Shown: in pieces, positions 28,906 through 35,565 of the stretch
Position numbering within the stretch: position 1 is the stretch's first letter
Layout of the letters: each line of letters opens with the position of its first letter
Sequence record: MN850580.1
Source: Escherichia phage momo
DNA: 64,000 nucleotides
Reading direction: 5' to 3' (one strand)
Notes under the pieces: generated by a model
Seen by the model: only the letters and a program-made list of their open reading frames with translations
What the model was told of the DNA's origin: nothing
The model's database searches: none
Position numbers and translations under genes: made by a program

Positions 28906-29066
28906 AGGAGAAACCACAATGTACGTCAGAGACATACTGTATAAGCCTTCTTATAAAGTATAACTCTGTAAAAAAGCCCTGTCTAAAAATACTCTTCGGT
29001 AGCGAAAGGAAGAATACTTATAGCAGGGCATTATTATTATTTTAATTGAGAGAGAGTAAAATAACT

Positions 29067-29142
29067 TGGAGAATCCGAAGGGACTCGAACCCTTATAAAC
29101 CTGTTTTGCAGACAGGCACATATCCATTTCTGTCACGGATTC
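29067..29142 (-). tRNA. tRNA-Cys (anticodon GCA)
   Basis: Hand-folded: acceptor GAAUCCG/CGGAUUC, anticodon loop CUGCAAA, T-loop UUCGAGU, CCA encoded. Confidence 0.7.
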
Positions 29143-29146
29143 AAAT

Positions 29147-29239
29147 TGGAGGAAGATACCAGACTTGAACTGGTACACCGATTTCTCAGCTACTGGCAGT
29201 TTAGCAAACTGCTCCCTTACCTTTTAGGGTTAATCTTCC
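29147..29239 (-). tRNA. tRNA-Ser (anticodon GCU), class II
   Basis: Anticodon stem GCAGU/ACUGC, loop UUGCUAA, long variable arm, T-arm ACCAG/CUGGU. Confidence 0.65.
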
Positions 29240-29240
29240 A

Positions 29241-29975
29241 TTATTTCTGTAATGCGCTCTTCATTTCTGGTGTTGCAATAGTGTCAATCACACCAGTTTT
29301 ACAAGCATCGTCAAACCAGTCTGGTAAGATACCTGCTAAGAACCCATTGATATTCGTTTTAAGGTACTCTGCAATAAGGGCAGCTTCTTCTTCAATCATC
29401 TGCACAACTTCATCTGCATAAGCTGTAATCTTTGAAATACCTTCATTAATCTTACTGACAGCTTGGTTAGCTAAATCAGAAACAGTATCAAGACCCTTAT
29501 CAATAGCATCTTGTAAGTCACTTAACACACCATTAACACTATCTAGTGTACTGTTCATCATGTCAATAGCTTTTTGACCATACTCTGTAGCAACACCCAT
29601 GATACCACTGAATGGTGTACAACCAACTTGTTCTCCTGCTGCACCCATAACATTGGAATACCCCTTTGCTACCTGCATACGTGATGAAAACTCATCAATA
29701 GATTTTTGACCGTAGTCTGTCAGAGTTTTAGTAGTTGCTGTAGTGCTTGTAAGGCTTGTTGTAAAGCTGTTTAGAAGGACTGTTGTAAGTCCAGCAGCAA
29801 CAAGTTTCTCCTTCATTGTAGGGTCTGTTACAGAACTAATAGAGCTTACAAGTGATGTAGAAGCAGCTACGGTTCCACCGAGAACTGCTGCACCAGTAAT
29901 AAGCGGGTTAGAGAACCCTTTACCAGTTTTTAAGAGATTAAAAATCTCCTTACCTTGTTCTGTCATCTCTTTCAT
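29241..29975 (-). CDS. hypothetical protein embedded in tRNA array
   Basis: Track ORF 29241..30038 uses GTG that overlaps tRNA-Phe; internal ATG at 29975 has AAGGTG RBS. Confidence 0.5.
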   Translation of the reverse strand: MKEMTEQGKEIFNLLKTGKGFSNPLITGAAVLGGTVAASTSLVSSISSVTDPTMKEKLVAAGLTTVLLNSFTTSLTSTTATTKTLTDYGQKSIDEFSSRMQVAKGYSNVMGAAGEQVGCTPFSGIMGVATEYGQKAIDMMNSTLDSVNGVLSDLQDAIDKGLDTVSDLANQAVSKINEGISKITAYADEVVQMIEEEAALIAEYLKTNINGFLAGILPDWFDDACKTGVIDTIATPEMKSALQK

Positions 29976-29991
29976 TAAGCACCTTTGAAAT

Positions 29992-30068
29992 TGGTAGTCC
30001 AGTGGGATTTGAACCCTCTTCTCATGTTTTTCAGACACGCGCTTTAACCATATAAGCTACTTGGACTA
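29992..30068 (-). tRNA. tRNA-Phe (anticodon GAA)
   Basis: Acceptor UAGUCCA/UGGACUA, anticodon stem CGUGU/ACAUG, loop CUGAAAA. Confidence 0.6.
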
Positions 30069-30073
30069 TAAAT

Positions 30074-30149
30074 TGGGGTGACCTACGGGATTTGAACCCG
30101 TATAGACCATGTTCACAGCATGGGTCATTACCGTTTATGATAAGGCCAC
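30074..30149 (-). tRNA. tRNA-His (anticodon GUG)
   Basis: Anticodon stem CCAUG/CAUGG, loop CUGUGAA, T-arm ACGGG/CCCGU. Confidence 0.7.
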
Positions 30150-30180
30150 ATTTAAGGACTCTCGCAAGAATCCTTAGAAG

Positions 30181-30256
30181 TGGCAGCGGCATAAGGATTT
30201 GAACCTTAATAGGACAGCTTCAGAGGCTGCTGCATTGCCAGTTATGCTATACCGCT
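30181..30256 (-). tRNA. tRNA-Gln (anticodon CUG)
   Basis: Acceptor AGCGGUA/UGCCGCU, D-stem GCAU/AUGC, anticodon loop CUCUGAA. Confidence 0.65.
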
Positions 30257-30261
30257 AAATT

Positions 30262-30340
30262 TGGTACTCCATATCGGATTCGAACCGATACATAACACAG
30301 ATTTTAAGTCTGGCCTCTCTGCCAATTGGAGTAATGGAGC
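30262..30340 (-). tRNA. tRNA with leucine anticodon UAA, class-I length (short variable loop)
   Basis: Acceptor GCUCCAU/AUGGAGU, T-arm AUCGG/CCGAU, anticodon loop CUUAAAA, 7-nt variable loop. Confidence 0.5.
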
Positions 30341-30341
30341 A

Positions 30342-30417
30342 TTGGCGGGGGATGTTGGAATTGAACCAACTTCTTCGATTTCAAAGACCGAGGTTTTAAC
30401 CTTGTAAACTAATCCCC
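30342..30417 (-). tRNA. tRNA-Gln (anticodon UUG)
   Basis: Anticodon stem UCGGU/AUCGA, loop CUUUGAA, T-arm GUUGG/CCAAC. Confidence 0.55.
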
Positions 30418-30426
30418 TTTAAATCT

Positions 30427-30984
30427 TTACTTTCTCAGTGGATGAATAAAGAATGCCAACATAACTCTTTCCCTTGAGAATGCTCTTTCTTCTGGGACAA
30501 CACTTTTTAGTTTCCATCCAACATAAATTCTCCAGTAAAACTGTTTACCAAAGATTTTAATTGACGGAATAAAAGCGAATAATCCCCAAGCATTGTTGTT
30601 CCACATTAGGAGATAACCTGTCTGATTATCTTCAGGGTCAGAACTTACGTTGATATTACCTTTCCACTTAGTAACATCTTTTACATCTCTTCCTAATACA
30701 TGGTAAGAGAAGTTATAAGCTTTGTTTCTCCAGAGCCATCCAACTCTCTGCATATAAACACCGAGCTTGCCAATCTTTCTAATCTTAGCCCATCTTTTAA
30801 TGTGACCTTCATCACCATCAATAGGGTTGTCATATGTCTCCATCCATCTGAATCCAAAAGGTAGATGCCCTTTCTTCTCACTATAGAATGGAACTACAAA
30901 AGGTGCTAAGATAACTGCTAAGGTTGCTGCCAATGGGTCTAACAAAGCTAGGAAAATCCATGAAGCATACTTCAAATATCTCAT
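30427..30984 (-). CDS. membrane protein embedded in tRNA array
   Basis: 185 aa, N-terminal hydrophobic segments (IFLALLDPLAATLAVILAPFVVPF). Confidence 0.5.
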   Translation of the reverse strand: MRYLKYASWIFLALLDPLAATLAVILAPFVVPFYSEKKGHLPFGFRWMETYDNPIDGDEGHIKRWAKIRKIGKLGVYMQRVGWLWRNKAYNFSYHVLGRDVKDVTKWKGNINVSSDPEDNQTGYLLMWNNNAWGLFAFIPSIKIFGKQFYWRIYVGWKLKSVVPEERAFSRERVMLAFFIHPLRK

Positions 30985-31003
30985 TTAAATAGCCTCTTTA
31001 AAT

Positions 31004-31079
31004 TGGCGCAGGATAAGGGATTCGAACCCCTATTAACAGCTTCGTAGACTGCTGCTCTATCCATTTGAACTAATCCTGC
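31004..31079 (-). tRNA. tRNA-Arg (anticodon ACG)
   Basis: Acceptor GCAGGAU/AUCCUGC, anticodon loop CUACGAA, T-loop UUCGAAU. Confidence 0.65.
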
Positions 31080-31084
31080 AAAAT

Positions 31085-31162
31085 TGGTGTTCCAAGACGG
31101 ATTCGAACCGTCACTAGTACAAGGTTTGAGCTTGCATCCTCTGCCAATTGGGATATTGGAAC
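31085..31162 (-). tRNA. tRNA with leucine anticodon CAA, class-I length
   Basis: Acceptor GUUCCAA/UUGGAAC, anticodon stem GCAAG/CUUGU, loop CUCAAAC, 6-nt variable loop. Confidence 0.5.
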
Positions 31163-31163
31163 A

Positions 31164-31238
31164 TGGTACTCACTAAAGGACTTGAACCTTTTTCTTCATC
31201 TTGTAAGGGTGATGTTTTACCATATAAACTAAGCGAGT
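31164..31238 (-). tRNA. tRNA-Val (anticodon UAC)
   Basis: Acceptor ACUCGCU/AGUGAGU, anticodon loop CUUACAA (one stem mismatch). Confidence 0.5.
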
Positions 31239-31242
31239 ATGA

Positions 31243-31328
31243 AAGAGGTCTGAAGTTGTGCCGCTAACTCAACTCCGTGGAATTTGTTACGGTCTTCAGT
31301 TGACACCAGCGGTCTTTCACTTGACCTC
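31243..31328. ncRNA. unassigned structured element in tRNA array (tRNA-like ends, no canonical T-loop)
   Basis: 7-nt terminal complementarity agaggtc/gacctct enclosing internal inverted repeats (ctgaag/cttcag, ccgt/acgg); no clean cloverleaf. Confidence 0.25.
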
Positions 31329-31333
31329 TGAAT

Positions 31334-31409
31334 TGGTGCTCCCACAAGGATTCGAACCCTGATAAGTTGCTTACAAGGCAACCGTAATAGCCAATTATAC
31401 GATAGGAGC
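31334..31409 (-). tRNA. tRNA-Thr (anticodon UGU)
   Basis: Acceptor GCUCCUA/UGGGAGC, anticodon stem GUUGC/GCAAC, loop CUUGUAA. Confidence 0.7.
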
Positions 31410-31416
31410 ATTAATT

Positions 31417-31491
31417 TGGAGCATCCAGAGGGAATCGAACCCTCAACCTCAGTTTGGAAGACTGTAATTTTCCCGTTTAAACTATGGATGC
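31417..31491 (-). tRNA. tRNA-Gly (anticodon UCC)
   Basis: Acceptor GCAUCCA/UGGAUGC, anticodon loop CUUCCAA, T-arm GAGGG/CCCUC. Confidence 0.65.
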
Positions 31492-31497
31492 ACTAAT

Positions 31498-31573
31498 TGG
31501 TGGAGTCACTGAGAATTGAACTCAGTTCCCAAGTTTGCAAAACTCGAATTTTAACCATATAAACTATGACCCC
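31498..31573 (-). tRNA. tRNA-Ala (anticodon UGC)
   Basis: Acceptor GGGGUCA/UGACUCC with G3-U70, anticodon loop UUUGCAA. Confidence 0.65.
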
Positions 31574-31579
31574 ATTGTT

Positions 31580-31655
31580 TGGTACAGGTGGAGGGAATTG
31601 AACCCATCGTCTTACTGATTAAGAGTCAGCCGCATAACCATTTTGCTACACCTGC
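31580..31655 (-). tRNA. tRNA-Lys (anticodon CUU)
   Basis: Acceptor GCAGGUG/CACCUGU, anticodon stem GCUGA/UCAGU, loop CUCUUAA; T-stem has two non-canonical pairs. Confidence 0.55.
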
Positions 31656-31662
31656 ATTAATT

Positions 31663-31740
31663 TGGTAGGAGACAAGGGATTCGAACCCTCAAACATCTCG
31701 TTCTAAGCGAGATAGGTTTACCAATTACCGTCAATCTCCC
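31663..31740 (-). tRNA. tRNA with leucine anticodon UAG, class-I length
   Basis: Clean fold: acceptor GGGAGAU/GUCUCCU, anticodon stem UCUCG/CGAGA, loop CUUAGAA, 5-nt variable loop. Confidence 0.55.
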
Positions 31741-31998
31741 ATTAAATCTTTTTAGAGAACTTCTAAGAACCTAAGCAACAAGGTTCCACAACAAGCTGTA
31801 ATAACCTTAGAAGCCCTCTAAAAAGACCTAAAAAGGTCTTTGCATAGTCTTGTTTAATCCGGTGACTAGAACCTTTGGAGAGCTTGATATTATCTCTTCT
31901 CCGTGACACCTACTAGGTGCTTTACTGTGCGTGTACGACAATACACTAGGGATACCAAAGCAACATCCGAATGAAGCTTGGCTTTAAATCTTATTAGG

Positions 31999-32086
31999 CG
32001 GTAAGTAAAGGAGTCGAACCCTCACCGTATCTCTACAGTGGCAACTGTTTTCAAGACAGTTTGGCTACCATTAGCCGCTACCTACC
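31999..32086 (-). tRNA. tRNA-Ser (anticodon UGA), class II
   Basis: Acceptor GGUAGGU/ACUUACC, anticodon stem ACUGU/ACAGU, loop CUUGAAA, about 20-nt variable arm. Confidence 0.6.
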
Positions 32087-32098
32087 CCTAATAAGACT

Positions 32099-32181
32099 TT
32101 GGCATGGGACGGAGGAGTTGAACCACTTTGAAACGGTTTTGGAGGCCGTTGCTCATGCCTTAGAGTCTTAACATCGTCCCA
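32099..32181 (-). tRNA. tRNA candidate, possibly Trp (anticodon CCA), atypical D region
   Basis: Acceptor GUGGGAC/GUCCCAU, CCA encoded, loop CUCCAAA resembling tRNA-Trp; D region about 7 nt longer than usual. Confidence 0.35.
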
Positions 32182-32325
32182 CACTATAATTCGAAGCTTA
32201 CCGTATTTTCACAACACTGTAAAGCCCCTTCTCAGATTATTTACATGTTCTGGAAAACATGAGATACAGACCACCTCCTTACACGGAGACCCGATAAGGT
32301 CGTCTAAGTAATCTGCTAACTAAAT

Positions 32326-32404
32326 TGGTCGAGGCGGCAGGACTCGAACCCGCATACTCCACTTACTCGGTTAACGGCGGTTTAGAAGACCGCTGAGATA
32401 CGCC
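32326..32404 (-). tRNA. tRNA candidate, possibly Arg (anticodon UCU), atypical
   Basis: Acceptor CGGGGCG/CGCCUCG, T-arm GCGGG/CCUGC, hairpin GCGGU-CUUCUAA-ACCGC, but D-arm not resolvable. Confidence 0.35.
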
Positions 32405-32655
32405 CCGTAATTATCTTTAAAGACTCTCTTAGAAAGCCCTTAAAGATGCCCACCTTATTAATCATACCGTGGGCTAGTACGCCAAATTCTTTGATGAGGG
32501 ATTGGAAGACCTCACTGGTGTTTAGCCTATCAAGCTACTGCCAGAAAAACATTGTCGTTTGCATTTATTTTAAATTTGCAAAATAGACGCTACGCAACGA
32601 AAACTAAGGTTACTATAAAGTAGTCGCATCTCAATGTCAACAACTTTATTGAAAT

Positions 32656-32731
32656 TGGTACTGGTAGGTGGAATCGAACCACCGATGTTCCCTTATCAGG
32701 GGAGTGTTATAACCTTCTTAACTATACCAGC
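32656..32731 (-). tRNA. tRNA-Ile (anticodon GAU)
   Basis: Acceptor GCUGGUA/UACCAGU, D-stem GUUA/UAAC, anticodon loop CUGAUAA. Confidence 0.65.
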
Positions 32732-32732
32732 T

Positions 32733-32809
32733 TGGAGGTTCAGATGGGAATCGAACCCACATTCATAGGGCTTATGAGACCCTTGCATTACCTTATCTGC
32801 GACTGAACC
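32733..32809 (-). tRNA. tRNA-Met type (anticodon CAU)
   Basis: Acceptor GGUUCAG/CUGAACC, anticodon stem AGGGU/GCCCU, loop CUCAUAA. Confidence 0.6.
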
Positions 32810-32813
32810 ATAT

Positions 32814-32889
32814 TGGTAGAAGTGGAGGGATTCGAACCCATCGCCTGTCAGATTAAAAGTCTGCCGCATCACCATTCTGCTACACTTCC
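32814..32889 (-). tRNA. tRNA-Lys (anticodon UUU)
   Basis: Acceptor GGAAGUG/CACUUCU, anticodon loop CUUUUAA; same T-stem irregularity as tRNA-Lys(CUU). Confidence 0.55.
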
Positions 32890-32896
32890 ATTAAAT

Positions 32897-33035
32897 TATC
32901 TTTGTAGATAAGCTACCCAGACTTGCTTAAGGTCTGTAGCGATGTGACTTTTTGGGTTTAAATCTAGAATTTACCCTTTCACCCTTTGTGGTCGCATACT
33001 CACAGGTAAGCTTAATAACTTATCTACAAAGATAA
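32897..33035. repeat. 17-bp perfect inverted repeat bracketing about 105 bp of non-coding sequence
   Basis: ttatctttgtagataag at 32897-32913 and reverse complement cttatctacaaagataa at 33019-33035. Confidence 0.6.
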
Positions 33036-33320
33036 TTACCAGACCGTTGTTTATCATCTTAAGTGCTACCATTACACCAACTCGACCTCTGCCGAGTGAA
33101 GGAATCGAACCTTCGCCTTTTCTTTACCGAGAAATAGATTGTTTAAGTTTTGCTGTAAACGGTCTTCTGTAAATTTGTTGAGCCAGACCAAGTTTTAAAT
33201 TTTTTCAAAATTGAATTGGCTTGAAAATATCATACATTCTTGCTGTATTTGGTCTTCTACTCCTTTAAAGAATACTCGTAAGAACTCTTTAAGGGAGGGG
33301 CTAAATAGCCCTCTCAAAAT

Positions 33321-33398
33321 TGGCGGTTACGAAGGGATTTGAACCCTCATCATCTCCCGTGACAGGGGAGTATTTTAACCAAATTAAACTACATAACC
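33321..33398 (-). tRNA. tRNA-Asp (anticodon GUC)
   Basis: Acceptor GGUUAUG/CGUAACC, anticodon stem CUCCC/GGGAG, loop CUGUCAC. Confidence 0.7.
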
Positions 33399-33403
33399 TT
33401 TAT

Positions 33404-33491
33404 TGGTGTGCCGTGTAGGAGTCGAACCTACCGAGTCTCAATGACAAGGGATTTACAGTCCCCACCGCTACCATCTACGGGATAACGACAC
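33404..33491 (-). tRNA. tRNA-Tyr (anticodon GUA), class II
   Basis: Acceptor GUGUCGU/ACGGCAC, anticodon stem GGGGA/UCCCU, loop CUGUAAA, long variable arm. Confidence 0.65.
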
Positions 33492-33499
33492 ATTTAATT

Positions 33500-33576
33500 T
33501 GGCGGTTAGTCAGGGATTCGAACCCTGTGCCATTCGCTTAACAGGCGACCGCACATACCTTATGTGCTTCCTAACC
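33500..33576 (-). tRNA. tRNA-Asn (anticodon GUU)
   Basis: D-stem GCAC/GUGC, anticodon loop CUGUUAA, T-arm CAGGG/CCCUG. Confidence 0.65.
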
Positions 33577-33654
33577 TTAATACATTGCCAGACCGTGTTT
33601 TTTCTTTTATCCGCAAAAAAGTATTTTGTTGCTGAATACGGTCTTCTGCAAAAT

Positions 33655-33731
33655 TGGAGGCGGGTGCAGGAGTCGAACCTGCCGATACCATGCTAATGAG
33701 ACATGTGAGACGCCCTTTCTCTATACCCGCA
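33655..33731 (-). tRNA. tRNA-Met type (anticodon CAU), second copy
   Basis: T-arm GCAGG/CCUGC, anticodon stem CAUGU/GCAUG, loop CUCAUUA (U at 37 unusual). Confidence 0.5.
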
Positions 33732-33822
33732 ATTCTTAATGACCAGACCAAATCTCTTCTTTGTCCGATTTACCTTCAGATGAATAAGATTAAGTTTGCT
33801 GTAATTGGTCTTCTGTCAAAAC

Positions 33823-33900
33823 TGGCGTTCCAGAAGGGATTTGAACCCTCAGATATCCACTTTGAAAGAGTGGTGACTATACCATTTTGTCTACTGGAAC
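33823..33900 (-). tRNA. tRNA-Glu (anticodon UUC)
   Basis: Acceptor GUUCCAG/CUGGAAC, anticodon stem CCACU/AGUGG, loop CUUUCAA. Confidence 0.7.
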
Positions 33901-33907
33901 ATTAATT

Positions 33908-33984
33908 TGGTCTCTGTTGGAGGACTTGAACCTCCGGCCTTACCGCCCCAAACGGAACGCTCTACCAATCTGAGCTAAACAGAG
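33908..33984 (-). tRNA. tRNA-Pro (anticodon UGG)
   Basis: Acceptor CUCUGUU/AACAGAG, D-stem GCUC/GAGC, anticodon loop UUUGGGG, T-arm GGAGG/CCUCC. Confidence 0.7.
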
Positions 33985-34102
33985 ATAAACTTTTCAAACT
34001 CTATGTAACCACTTTAACATTATTTTTTAGTGGTTGTCAAGAACTTTTTTAAAATATTTTTCAGTATCTTAGAAAAGCTCTCATTTCGTTTCTATGTAGA
34101 AC

Positions 34103-34131
34103 ATATTAAAGGGTATCAAACACATTGTCAA
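34103..34131 (-). promoter_or_regulatory. sigma70-type promoter driving the tRNA array (TTGACA-N17-TAATAT)
   Basis: Minus strand reads TTGACAatgtgtttgatacccttTAATAT; lies between vWA gene stop and first tRNA. Confidence 0.6.
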
Positions 34132-34149: not shown

Positions 34150-35565
34150 TTACCAGATATAACGGTCAATCATTACTGCTTTGAGCATTACACTGATTGG
34201 GTCAAACTTCTCACCACCAAGCAGAGCTTTTAAAGTGGCTGGAGAGAACCCTGATACCATTGCTACACCGTTATCCTTAACAGATACTTCGCAAGTACCA
34301 TTACGGTTTGCTAAGTACCAGAATACCAGTTGTGGCATCTCATATCCAGCTTTTTTGTACTTACTCTGAATTGCTTCAAAGTTTGTACGACCGTTAGCTC
34401 CATCAACCTGATTGAACTCCATATCGGAGAAGATGATAAGCTTACTTGGCATATCTTTCTGAGTCAAGTTGTTTCTTTTACCTGTTTCAAGAATGCGGTC
34501 AAAAGCTGCTTGTAAGTTAGTTGAGCCATATTCAACGTGTCGCATCACCTGACGATGACGGTTTCGTAAATCACCACTCAGTTCGATGAAGTGAGGGTTT
34601 GTTGAATAAACCATTAACTCATTCTTAAAGCAACCTGTATTGCGTTCTGCTACATACAAGGCAAGTGATACACCAATATCCAGAGCAGTAATGGAGCCAA
34701 AATTCACCCAAGACATTGAACTTGATACATCAGACATACACAAGATGTTTTCACCTTCTGCCATCCAGTTTGGTAGTGCTTTCCACTGCTCATTAGCAAC
34801 ATCTGCATTACCATACTTGACAGATTTAATCACATCGTATGGGTAAACAGCACCAGCGTTAATCTTAGTCTCACCTTTTGATAAGGACTCGATGTAAGAT
34901 TTGTAACGCTCTCCATCTTTACGGTTAAACAGTTTTTGGTAACGTGCAGCAGCAAGTGAAGGAATCTTACTGTAGTCAATCTTACCAAACTCGTTAGCAG
35001 AGATTTTTTGCTCAACTGTATCAGATAGTGCAGACAACAGTGTGCGGTACTCTTTCTCACTCAAGTTGGCAAACTTGCAGAAACGTTTTACAAACTGCTT
35101 ATGACGTGGTTTGACTCGTGGTAACCACTTAGCTGCCAAACCTGCTGTTGCAGGGTCTAGTAATGCTGCTTCTAAATGCTTGAAGGCATCTGTCTCGAAA
35201 CGAGTACCCACGAAGATTTTGAAATCATCAAAGCGACCAAGCTCTGCAATCTTATCCATAATGCGAAGAACCTGTGTAGACTCTAGAACTTTATCTTCAA
35301 TCGCTTGAAGTAAAACAGTTCGGAAAGCTTTACGCTCACCCATACCTTCTCGTACATCTCGCATATGCAGTAAAATACGAACTGCAACATCAACATCCTC
35401 ATGCAAAGCTTTGTAGAACAAGTCTGGTAAGATTTCTACATTGCTACGGCTAGAACCAGCAGCTTTGTAAAAGTCCACAAGAGCAGACATTGATGAAGTA
35501 TGGTTTACAGCACCATTTTCAGTTCGACCTGCATGAAGGTGCACATGTTTAAATAATTCGCTCAT
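34150..35565 (-). CDS. vWA (MIDAS) domain protein with N-terminal helical domain
   Basis: MIDAS-like ILCMSDVSSSMSW around residue 277 with downstream hydrophobic strands (LIIFSDMEF); about 270-aa helical N-terminal domain. Confidence 0.55.
   Translation of the reverse strand: MSELFKHVHLHAGRTENGAVNHTSSMSALVDFYKAAGSSRSNVEILPDLFYKALHEDVDVAVRILLHMRDVREGMGERKAFRTVLLQAIEDKVLESTQVLRIMDKIAELGRFDDFKIFVGTRFETDAFKHLEAALLDPATAGLAAKWLPRVKPRHKQFVKRFCKFANLSEKEYRTLLSALSDTVEQKISANEFGKIDYSKIPSLAAARYQKLFNRKDGERYKSYIESLSKGETKINAGAVYPYDVIKSVKYGNADVANEQWKALPNWMAEGENILCMSDVSSSMSWVNFGSITALDIGVSLALYVAERNTGCFKNELMVYSTNPHFIELSGDLRNRHRQVMRHVEYGSTNLQAAFDRILETGKRNNLTQKDMPSKLIIFSDMEFNQVDGANGRTNFEAIQSKYKKAGYEMPQLVFWYLANRNGTCEVSVKDNGVAMVSGFSPATLKALLGGEKFDPISVMLKAVMIDRYIW

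Follow-up and report, generated by a model that had tools for sequence, protein, structure and literature searches.

In this paper we analyse a 64,000-nt stretch of the genome of Escherichia phage momo (MN850580.1), called the window below, to which all positions refer. Our subject is an array of transfer RNA (tRNA) genes on its minus strand (29067-33984), the protein gene upstream of this array, and four small RNA elements, Ya to Yd, in the gaps between the tRNA genes. Besides the tRNA genes themselves we observe a predicted Ro60-like fold for the upstream protein, an RNA family to which Ya-Yd belong, covariation within that family, and a strand-specific linkage of the family to the DUF2828 gene that encodes the protein. 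In the following list R1 is a covariance model built from distant phages and RF01414 is the Rfam model of the Dictyostelid Class I RNAs.

34150 to 35565, minus strand: Ro60/TROVE-like protein gene, 471 amino acids (aa), with DUF2828, DUF7788 and a vWA (von Willebrand factor A) domain that carries a MIDAS (metal ion-dependent adhesion site), as predicted from Pfam, an AlphaFold (AF2) model and Foldseek.
33740 to 33818, minus strand: Ya, short module; UGAC/GUCA, AGACCAA/UUGGUCU, UUA-CAGCAA; R1 35.9 bits, E=2.7e-7; RF01414 19.7 bits.
33585 to 33651, minus strand: Yb, short module; UUGC/GCAA, AGACCGU/ACGGUCU, AUU-CAGCAA; R1 36.8 bits, E=1.6e-7; RF01414 26.7 bits.
33180 to 33262, minus strand: Yc, short module; GAGU/GCUC, AGACCAA/UUGGUCU, AUA-CAGCAA; R1 26.6 bits, E=1e-4.
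33036 to 33172, minus strand: Yd, long module; outer stem UUAC/GUAA, with the same handle enclosing a permuted tRNA-like domain (minimum free energy fold).

The sequence AGAAGACC occurs four times on the minus strand of the window, always inside the array. Each copy is followed after 53-123 nt by GGTCTGG, which on the minus strand is likewise confined to the array. When folded with RNAfold, the four segments share a terminal fold composed of a 4-bp outer stem, an AGA/G internal loop, a 7-8-bp stem AGACCNN/NNGGUCU and, after 3 nt, a single-stranded CAGCAA. The outer stems listed above differ from each other in sequence, yet each is complementary. Inside the handle of Yd, the T-arm GAAGG-UUCGAUU-CCUUC is followed first by ACUCGGC-AGAG-GUCGAGU, an acceptor-like hairpin with a tetraloop at its end, and then by GUGU-AAUGGUA-GCAC as the D-arm. 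This four-helix layout is kept in the Yd orthologues of the phages Michonne and Sf14 and in a module of a distant locus, L079_9686, and the acceptor-like stem changes on both strands among Yd, its orthologues and the distant module (ACUCGGC/GUCGAGU, ACCCUUC/GAAGGGU, ACACG/CGUGU and CACCCCG/CGGGGUG). Ya and Yb start 3-4 nt past the CCA end of the preceding tRNA and stop 8 nt short of the next one, while Yc and Yd come after tRNA-Asp; the first module lies ~330 nt downstream of the Ro60-like gene. All four modules are syntenic in Mooglevirus and are annotated in none of the GenBank records inspected. An earlier note on this DNA had regarded the gaps between the tRNA genes as mere spacers and had overlooked the Ro60 homologue upstream, a view that the presence of four Y-RNA-like modules in these gaps contradicts. 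We also considered the inverse arrangement, GGTCT...tRNA...AGACC, in which a stem would close around a tRNA. It was rejected on two grounds: the series runs from AGAAGACC at its start to GGTCTGG at its end, and only a register of AGAAGACC...GGTCTGG allows the outer stems to pair.

For the wider distribution of the modules we fetched 80 viral contigs encoding relatives of the 471-aa protein, mostly 39-47% identical to it; handles such as L079 denote these distant loci. The exact motif of the Felix group, AGACC...GGTCT, is not found in them, and the family becomes visible only once the stem sequence is relaxed and the search is anchored on CAGCAA. Our strict descriptor ([AG]G plus 5 nt, 1-4 nt, CAGCAA, 12-170 nt, the complementary 7-mer and then G) was run on 75 non-Felix DUF2828 loci comprising 1.05 Mb. 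It gave 81 matches on the strand of the gene and 0 on the opposite strand, compared with 0.33 per shuffled set, and at least one match was found in 48 of the 75 loci. Forty-three of the 81 modules lie within 500 nt of the DUF2828 gene, 21 of them upstream and 22 downstream. Among the 79 unique modules the first stem pairs are A-U and G-C and the remaining five stem positions are variable, and the spacer between stem and motif is 3 nt long in 75. A percentage of paired positions would be circular for sequences selected by a descriptor that requires pairing, and we therefore added a control with permuted stems and a split into training and test loci. In the control, which does not select for pairing, the 5' motif was found 106 times on the gene strand and could be paired with a 7-mer no more than 170 nt away in 75 of these cases, where permuted stems lead us to expect 4.6; this excess shows that the helix is real. 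The next base is G in 73 of the 75 paired cases, and the 5' motif itself occurs 16 times on the opposite strand. The covariance model R1 was trained on 39 short modules from distant loci only. Searched against both strands of the 64-kb window it returns Yb, Ya and Yc as its top three matches, with the E-values given above, and in 51 untrained loci it finds 40 matches, all on the gene strand.

The lengths of the distant modules are bimodal, with short modules of ~47-70 nt and long ones of ~90-185 nt that carry a 'cargo' in their interior. This cargo is often a tRNA-like core of the YrlA type, which aligns to the Rfam YrlA model (RF02553) at 24-39 bits, with E-values down to 5e-5. A single locus can hold up to six descriptor copies spread over kilobases (six in L067, five each in L021 and L079). 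Genes for tRNA or transfer-messenger RNA (tmRNA) were found in 30 of 60 scanned distant loci, 226 in total, all on the strand of the DUF2828 gene and often directly after it.

Other kinds of cargo and neighbours are also present. A conserved cargo containing GAACCUUUCUGGAGGGGAAAGCAAAAACUCGCC is common to L008 (3133-3233), L011, L012 and L025. In L047 (7755-7855) and L079 (10520-10616) the cargo is a non-permuted tRNA body with D-arm, anticodon arm and T-arm, in which the handle replaces the acceptor stem; one of these is called as a 55-bit tRNA by Rfam. Phage tmRNA genes lie a few kb from the DUF2828 gene and on its strand in eight distant loci (L020, L021, L024, L028, L032, L045, L053 and L071), which suggests a broader 'translation/RNA-rescue' neighbourhood.

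The 471-aa protein upstream of the array matches only DUF2828 and DUF7788 in Pfam, and a sequence search of the PDB returned no match for it. Its AF2 model, built on a 32-sequence alignment, has a predicted local distance difference test score (pLDDT) of 87 and a predicted template modelling score (pTM) of 0.87, and displays the Ro60 architecture, a HEAT-like helical-repeat ring joined to a vWA domain with MIDAS. The best 12 Foldseek matches in the PDB are all Ro60/TROVE structures, with E-values from 1e-8 to 9e-7 and alignments over essentially the full length. They include Xenopus Ro60 with and without RNA, human Ro60, D. radiodurans Rsr and the Ro60 of Thermus phage phiLo. The TM-score, normalised by query length, is 0.55-0.65 for 11 of the 12 and 0.41 for D. 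radiodurans Rsr. In the alignment the MIDAS residues D279-x-S281-x-S283, T349 and D381 are invariant. On the basis of this model the gene at 34150-35565 is predicted to encode a full-length structural homologue of Ro60/TROVE. Its orthologue in phage Bas63, gp130, has independently been called Ro60-like and counters the ppl defence system (10.1101/2024.10.10.617714). DUF2828 proteins are common in phages and occur in plants, algae and mimiviruses as well.

We consider it probable that the locus is a tRNA cluster of 25 canonical and two aberrant tRNA genes in which Ya-Yd serve as Y-RNA-type partners of the Ro60-like ring, in a ribonucleoprotein (RNP) that helps the phage. The partnership of RNA and protein is suggested by their linkage and by the analogy with Ro60 and Y RNAs. 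The cluster would then be the second half of a conserved two-part module, with the Ro60-like gene as the first. The handle, a 7-bp stem that starts with A-G and ends with C-U, followed by an unpaired 3' G, with exactly 3 nt between the 5' strand and CAGCAA, is a putative protein-binding platform. The variable interior would be the cargo, which in Yd is a circularly permuted tRNA-like body as in YrlA. Ya-Yd may be released by the tRNA processing machinery (RNase P and 3' trimming), which for Ya and Yb would come at no extra cost because they lie only 3-4 nt and 8 nt from the flanking tRNAs. The RNP would most likely act on RNA metabolism during infection, where it could recruit or block host exoribonucleases, or engage tRNA-directed enzymes through its tRNA-like cargo, and in this way would help the phage to escape host defence. 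We propose this role because of the analogy with Ro60-Y RNA-PNPase complexes and the anti-ppl phenotype of Bas63 gp130.

Several observations weigh against this interpretation. The 471-aa protein is a divergent Ro60 paralogue: Pfam TROVE (PF05731) does not match it and phmmer against PDB sequences finds no Ro60, so its mode of RNA binding may differ from that of Ro60. Ro-binding motifs have been published as GNCGAAN0-1G for YrlA and GGUCCGA for vertebrates (PMC4201824), and the motif of the phage handle, NUWCAGCAA after a 7-bp stem, does not correspond to either. The Rfam YrlA model gives no match on Yd, even in a 256-nt search, so that Yd cannot be filed as a member of RF02553. Felixounavirus and Mooglevirus phages show almost no variation in handle sequence within their groups, and for this reason the covariation had to be drawn from paralogues and from distant phages. 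Twenty-seven of the 75 distant loci have no descriptor match, which is partly due to truncated contigs and to the strictness of the descriptor. Finally, most genes of the Bas63 tRNA region are dispensable on laboratory hosts (10.1101/2024.10.10.617714).

One alternative is that the locus is a tRNA array only, and that the stem and CAGCAA elements are spacers or processing signals, such as RNase E or RNase III sites or stabilising hairpins, unlinked to the upstream protein. The way in which Ya and Yb are squeezed between tRNAs would fit this, as would the many distant copies interleaved with tRNAs (L021, L079). Yet the element adjoins the DUF2828 gene also at loci with no tRNA detected up to 8 kb away (among them L013, L023, L036, L039, L056, L065, L066, L080 and L081), 43 of the 81 copies are within 500 nt of the gene on one side or the other, and most inter-tRNA junctions in the window are without the element. 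An elaborate permuted tRNA-like cargo of the YrlA type would also be unexpected for a cleavage signal, and we regard this explanation as unlikely. The proximity to the gene might instead point to cis-regulatory structures of the Ro60-like mRNA or of neighbouring transcripts, for example autoregulatory sites, attenuators or elements that stabilise the 3' end, and not to independent Y-type RNAs. Close to half the copies directly precede or follow the DUF2828 coding sequence (CDS) on the same strand, and a handle-binding protein could feed back on its own mRNA. However, ~330 nt with two promoters and two tRNAs separate the gene from the first of the copies downstream of it in the window, and up to six copies per locus are dispersed over kilobases. 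A cargo of at least 100 nt that mimics a tRNA is atypical of an element in an untranslated region, and no U-tract follows the stem; cis-regulation therefore seems to us quite unlikely.

The elements might also belong to the DNA, as miniature inverted-repeat elements or as targets of recombination or homing endonucleases that shuffle tRNA genes. Terminal inverted repeats surround a variable cargo, HNH endonuclease genes are present in the arrays of relatives, and the tRNA content varies between genera. These points are opposed by the strand asymmetry (81 against 0 for the descriptor and 40 against 0 for R1), by a single-stranded motif conserved on one strand only, by the tolerance of G-U pairs, and by stems that covary freely while the geometry stays fixed. 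The elements thus behave as RNA and not as DNA sites. Their positions are moreover syntenic between Felixounavirus and Mooglevirus and not scattered, and we consider an origin as DNA repeats highly improbable.

Regarding Ya-Yd as Y-RNA-like partners of the upstream protein invites a comparison with known RNA families. As in YrlA/Ro60 systems, the small RNAs adjoin a gene of the Ro60 fold on the same strand, with several paralogous RNAs per locus. The modules share with Y RNAs a terminal stem formed by the 5' and 3' ends, a conserved motif on the 5' side and a large interior. Yd and the long modules of L021, L067 and L079 additionally have a YrlA-type tRNA-like domain, judged by their fold and by alignment of the YrlA core: the order of T-arm, acceptor-like hairpin and D-arm is the permuted one described for YrlA (PMC4201824), and the GG/UUCGA elbow is intact. 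The gathering score of YrlA (69 bits) is not reached by any module, the best being a module of L067 with 38.9 bits. Unlike the Ro60/Rsr of YrlA systems, the protein partner belongs to the DUF2828/DUF7788 branch, and Ya-Yd are embedded in a tRNA array while YrlA stands alone. Ro60 together with Yrl is encoded by phage phiLo (PMC12135203), and Ro60-Y RNA-PNPase complexes are found in bacteria and in phiLo. At the level of organisation the locus also resembles the tRNA regions of phages T4 and T5, in which a tRNA cluster likewise carries non-tRNA small RNAs released by tRNA processing enzymes. These extra small RNAs are stable. We know of no Ro60-like protein gene beside the T4 and T5 clusters, and saw no relation in sequence or structure, for which no dedicated test was made.

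The only other Rfam model that touches the modules is RF01414, the Dictyostelid Class I RNA. Its gathering score of 41.5 is not reached; the sub-threshold matches all fall on modules (7 of 7: Ya, Yb and five distant ones), with 28-36 bits on the distant short modules and 36.1 as the best score. To our knowledge the function of the abundant Class I RNAs has been unassigned since 2004. They are ~60 nt long, start with AAG, have a covarying 6-bp terminal stem with an invariant G-C closing pair and end with CUGU (PMC7919456). Next to the 5' strand of the stem they carry an 11-nt motif, CCUUACAGCAA, in which U3, C6, C9, A10 and A11 are near-invariant (PMC7919456). The phage modules, with the consensus (A)A-AG...CU-G(U/A) and a median of 66 nt, agree with this description in start, stem, end and length, and a variable A/U-rich interior is common to both. 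The phage motif NUWCAGCAA can be set beside CCUUACAGCAA: of the 39 short modules in the alignment at least 90% have the U before CAGCAA, while the conservation of CAGCAA itself is a selection criterion, since the descriptor requires it. The distance from stem to motif differs by ~1 nt in the covariance model alignment. Class I RNAs are reported to be confined to Dictyostelia; they have a DUSE promoter ~60 nt upstream, and their partner is the RRM protein Rnp1A (PMC7919456). Promoter and partner are eukaryotic traits by which a phage cannot be judged. Our search for DUF2828 in Dictyostelium, for which we queried with a plant-like probe, a plant fragment (exhaustive phmmer), cluster names and a cryptophyte sequence, returned only plants, green algae and a cryptophyte, a result we do not read as absence.

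The resemblance to Class I RNAs is a lead and not a result, and might reflect homology or convergence. A broader proposal is that the stem and UWCAGCAA handle is the recognition element of the DUF2828 Ro60-like branch wherever this is found. Class I RNAs would then be homologues or horizontally acquired relatives of the phage Y-RNA family that act through a Ro60-like RNP, and the phage handle would be a modular adaptor which presents tRNA-like or other cargo to the ring protein and so manipulates host RNA decay or defence. We put this forward tentatively and consider it rather doubtful.

The tRNA array in which the modules are embedded is itself already known, since it is annotated in GenBank relatives and has been published. 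The 5.1-kb region matches 408 phage records, 235 of which cover at least 80% of it, and the best matches are Felixounavirus phages of Escherichia, Salmonella and Shigella with 96-97% identity and 100% coverage. In the homologous stretch of phage allfine the annotation reads portal, terminase, a small open reading frame (ORF), 25 tRNAs with two embedded CDSs, and two 'hypothetical' genes. The Felixounavirus or Ounavirinae clusters of Felix O1, wV8, Bas63, allfine and LinBro have the same tRNA order, the same DUF7217 and DUF7338 genes and the same position between the DUF2828 gene and terminase; their tRNAs do not differ materially from those of the window, and neither records nor papers annotate an RNA in the gaps of Ya-Yd. 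The gene order of the array is the same in Mooglevirus. Nucleotide identity and synteny (DUF2828 gene, tRNAs with two ORFs, small ORF, terminase) thus identify the array as the standard tRNA cluster of a Felix O1-type myovirus of the genus Felixounavirus, which is at least partly shown to be functional. A comparative paper gives 17-23 tRNAs per Felixounavirus genome (PMC8300805). The recoded strain Syn61-delta-3 is infected by few phages, Felixounaviruses among them, and those able to do so are described as encoding an appropriate seryl-tRNA (PMC12269064). In the study of Bas63 it was speculated that some of the annotated tRNAs might be Y RNAs, and none was identified (10.1101/2024.10.10.617714).

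Genes for tRNAs were called with ARAGORN and with Rfam, whose gathering score for tRNA is 29 bits. ARAGORN recovers 25 genes, all on the minus strand, and Rfam gives 24 matches at or above the gathering score, namely 23 of these 25 and a weak one at 32329-32407. The canonical genes are genuine cloverleaf tRNAs. Scores of up to 65 bits, and the annotation of this array in hundreds of phages in GenBank, exclude chance. The following genes were called by both programs unless stated otherwise, and every one except tRNA-Ser(UGA) has an encoded CCA end.

33908 to 33984, minus: tRNA-Pro (UGG).
33823 to 33900, minus: tRNA-Glu (UUC).
33655 to 33731, minus: tRNA with CAU anticodon and a U1.C72 mismatch; ARAGORN, missed by Rfam.
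33500 to 33576, minus: tRNA-Asn (GUU).
33404 to 33491, minus: tRNA-Tyr (GUA); ARAGORN.
33321 to 33398, minus: tRNA-Asp (GUC).
32814 to 32889, minus: tRNA-Lys (UUU).
32733 to 32809, minus: tRNA with CAU anticodon, second copy.
32656 to 32731, minus: tRNA-Ile (GAU).
31997 to 32086, minus: tRNA-Ser (UGA), without encoded CCA.
31663 to 31740, minus: tRNA-Leu (UAG), short variable region.
31580 to 31655, minus: tRNA-Lys (CUU).
31498 to 31573, minus: tRNA-Ala (UGC).
31417 to 31491, minus: tRNA-Gly (UCC).
31334 to 31409, minus: tRNA-Thr (UGU).
31164 to 31238, minus: tRNA-Val (UAC).
31085 to 31162, minus: tRNA-Leu (CAA), short variable region.
31004 to 31079, minus: tRNA-Arg (ACG).
30343 to 30418, minus: tRNA-Gln (UUG).
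30262 to 30340, minus: tRNA-Leu (UAA), short variable region.
30181 to 30256, minus: tRNA-Gln (CUG).
30074 to 30149, minus: tRNA-His (GUG).
29992 to 30067, minus: tRNA-Phe (GAA).
29147 to 29239, minus: tRNA-Ser (GCU).
29067 to 29142, minus: tRNA-Cys (GCA).

Two aberrant genes complete the set.

32326 to 32407, minus: Arg-UCU-like aberrant tRNA; Rfam tRNA 31.7 bits (match 32329-32407), and comparison with Mooglevirus and L007.
32100 to 32182, minus: Trp-like aberrant tRNA; cross-genus comparison only.

The earlier note had counted about 27 tRNA genes and proposed a tRNA-finding tool as the check. The 25 canonical and two aberrant genes bear this number out, and its list of anticodons and outer limits agree exactly with the output of ARAGORN. 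It had also suggested that all 20 amino acids are covered. This holds for the 19 amino acids covered by canonical tRNAs, but Trp is reached only through an aberrant gene with an irregular D-arm and a 9-nt anticodon loop. The two Lys tRNAs do share the T-stem AUGGG/CCCUC with U.U and A.C mismatches, and are paralogues as had been supposed; the duplication is however not recent, because both copies are already present in Mooglevirus and in L007.

Some of the canonical genes have unusual features. The three tRNAs with Leu anticodons are 78-79 nt long including CCA and have a variable region of ~8-9 nt in place of the class II long arm, with A73 kept. Bacterial tRNA-Leu normally has a long class II arm, and the leucyl-tRNA synthetase of E. 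coli does not need it, so these tRNAs may still be charged with Leu. Neither of the two CAU tRNAs has the three G-C pairs 29-31/39-41 typical of initiators. Each may be an elongator Met, an initiator-like or a lysidine-Ile tRNA; ATA makes up only 5% of the Ile codons in the ORFs of the window.

The Arg-UCU-like gene has a 7-bp acceptor stem, an anticodon loop CUUCUAA, a T-arm and an encoded CCA, and has a 23-nt variable region and no D-arm. Mooglevirus and L007 carry a canonical tRNA-Arg(UCU) at this position, and the sequence comparison indicates that the D-arm was lost in Felixounavirus and kept in Mooglevirus. G73 and an encoded CCA end are present in the Trp-like gene, whose CCA anticodon lies in a conserved 9-nt loop, CCUCCAAAA. 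It falls below the threshold of every tool, its best match being to the tRNA-Sec model with 21 bits and E=1.1. It is nevertheless real: Felixounavirus, Mooglevirus and L007 all keep the gene, and its anticodon stem is fully compensated (AACGG/CCGUU and GUAAG/CUUAC).

The phage has a GC content of 39%, and 68% of its codons end in A or U. AGA is the most used Arg codon, with 42% of the Arg codons in 41 long ORFs of the window, and stands against a matching tRNA without D-arm. Either the odd tRNA is functional or the phage depends on the rare tRNA of the host. The array would supply this AT-rich phage with its own decoding set, mostly with U34 anticodons, which would serve codons used far more often than in E. 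coli, whose codon usage is general background. The phage tRNAs would also help where host tRNAs are missing or attacked.

Further features of the region concern its transcription and two protein genes embedded in the array.

34103 to 34131, minus: promoter-like P1, TTGACA-17-TAATAT, 10 of 12 consensus positions.
34011 to 34040, minus: promoter-like P2, TTGACA-18-TAAAGT with an upstream TG, promoter motif match.
32612 to 32640, minus: internal promoter-like P3, TTGACA-17-TATAGT, the best match of the region with 11 of 12 consensus positions.
28970 to 29029, minus: intrinsic terminator, a long hairpin GCCCUG...CAGGGC with UUUUUU behind it; the stretch folds at -28.2 kcal/mol, z = -4.35.
30427 to 30984, minus: embedded protein gene, 185 aa, Pfam DUF7338, hydrophobic N-terminus.
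29241 to 29975, minus: embedded protein gene of 244 aa, DUF7217 in Pfam; relatives annotate it as 'putative membrane protein'.

The strong promoter that had been predicted at the right end is found as P1, and the terminator predicted at the left end is present as a hairpin with six U's, at a position where relatives annotate a terminator too. Both embedded protein genes are real as judged by their Pfam matches. The picture of one array running from promoter to terminator stands at its two ends, but the second promoter P2 and the better internal promoter P3 show that it is not one simple operon. Minus-strand transcription would start from at least three sigma-70-type promoters and be closed by the intrinsic terminator.

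Beyond tRNA, Rfam finds no known family at threshold in the window (gathering and permissive settings were run). Downstream of P3, the region 32409-32714 (minus), which includes a 248-nt stretch without annotated gene, scores weakly against the models of tmRNA (15.4 bits) and of permuted tmRNA (27.6 bits, gathering score 47); these sub-threshold matches of 15-28 bits are probably due to chance. Matches to microRNA and plastid-UTR families are mirror images of tRNAs or noise.

Between Yd and tRNA-Lys(UUU) lies a 147-nt element (32890-33036, minus) with a 23-bp terminal stem around ~100 nt (-45 kcal/mol, z = -5.9). It contains a mini hairpin, AGACC-UUAAGCAA-GUCUGG, which resembles a degenerate handle. 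The blastn matches of Mooglevirus end before this element, so it may be variable or mobile. The 95-nt spacer between tRNA-Thr and tRNA-Val (31239-31333, minus) forms a stable long hairpin (-30.7 kcal/mol, z = -2.9) and holds GAAGACCGUAACAA, possibly a decayed copy of the 5' half of the handle; a gap about as long is present here in Michonne and Sf14. In the 256-nt gap between tRNA-Ser(UGA) and tRNA-Leu(UAG) (31741-31996, minus) we find a terminator-like hairpin, AAAGACC-UUUUUA-GGUCUUU followed by U's (31820-31841). Michonne has an HNH endonuclease gene in this gap, and HNH genes are found inside the array of several Felixounavirus relatives.

What is new here is a statistically solid and previously unannotated Y-RNA-like family, a variant of the theme of Ro60 and Y RNAs, inside the 'spacers' of the array. 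Ya-Yd are concrete candidates for the Y RNAs guessed at in the Bas63 study of gp130. The simple descriptor and the covariance model can be used for annotating module RNAs, and the resemblance to the Dictyostelium Class I RNAs is an unexpected lead. The family is tied to the uncharacterised DUF2828/DUF7788 proteins, which also occur in giant viruses and plants, and it gives a reason for the joint occurrence of tRNA arrays and Ro60-like genes in phages. Should host exoribonucleases or tRNA-directed defence enzymes prove to be the targets of the RNP, it would represent a new class of RNA-based anti-defence device.

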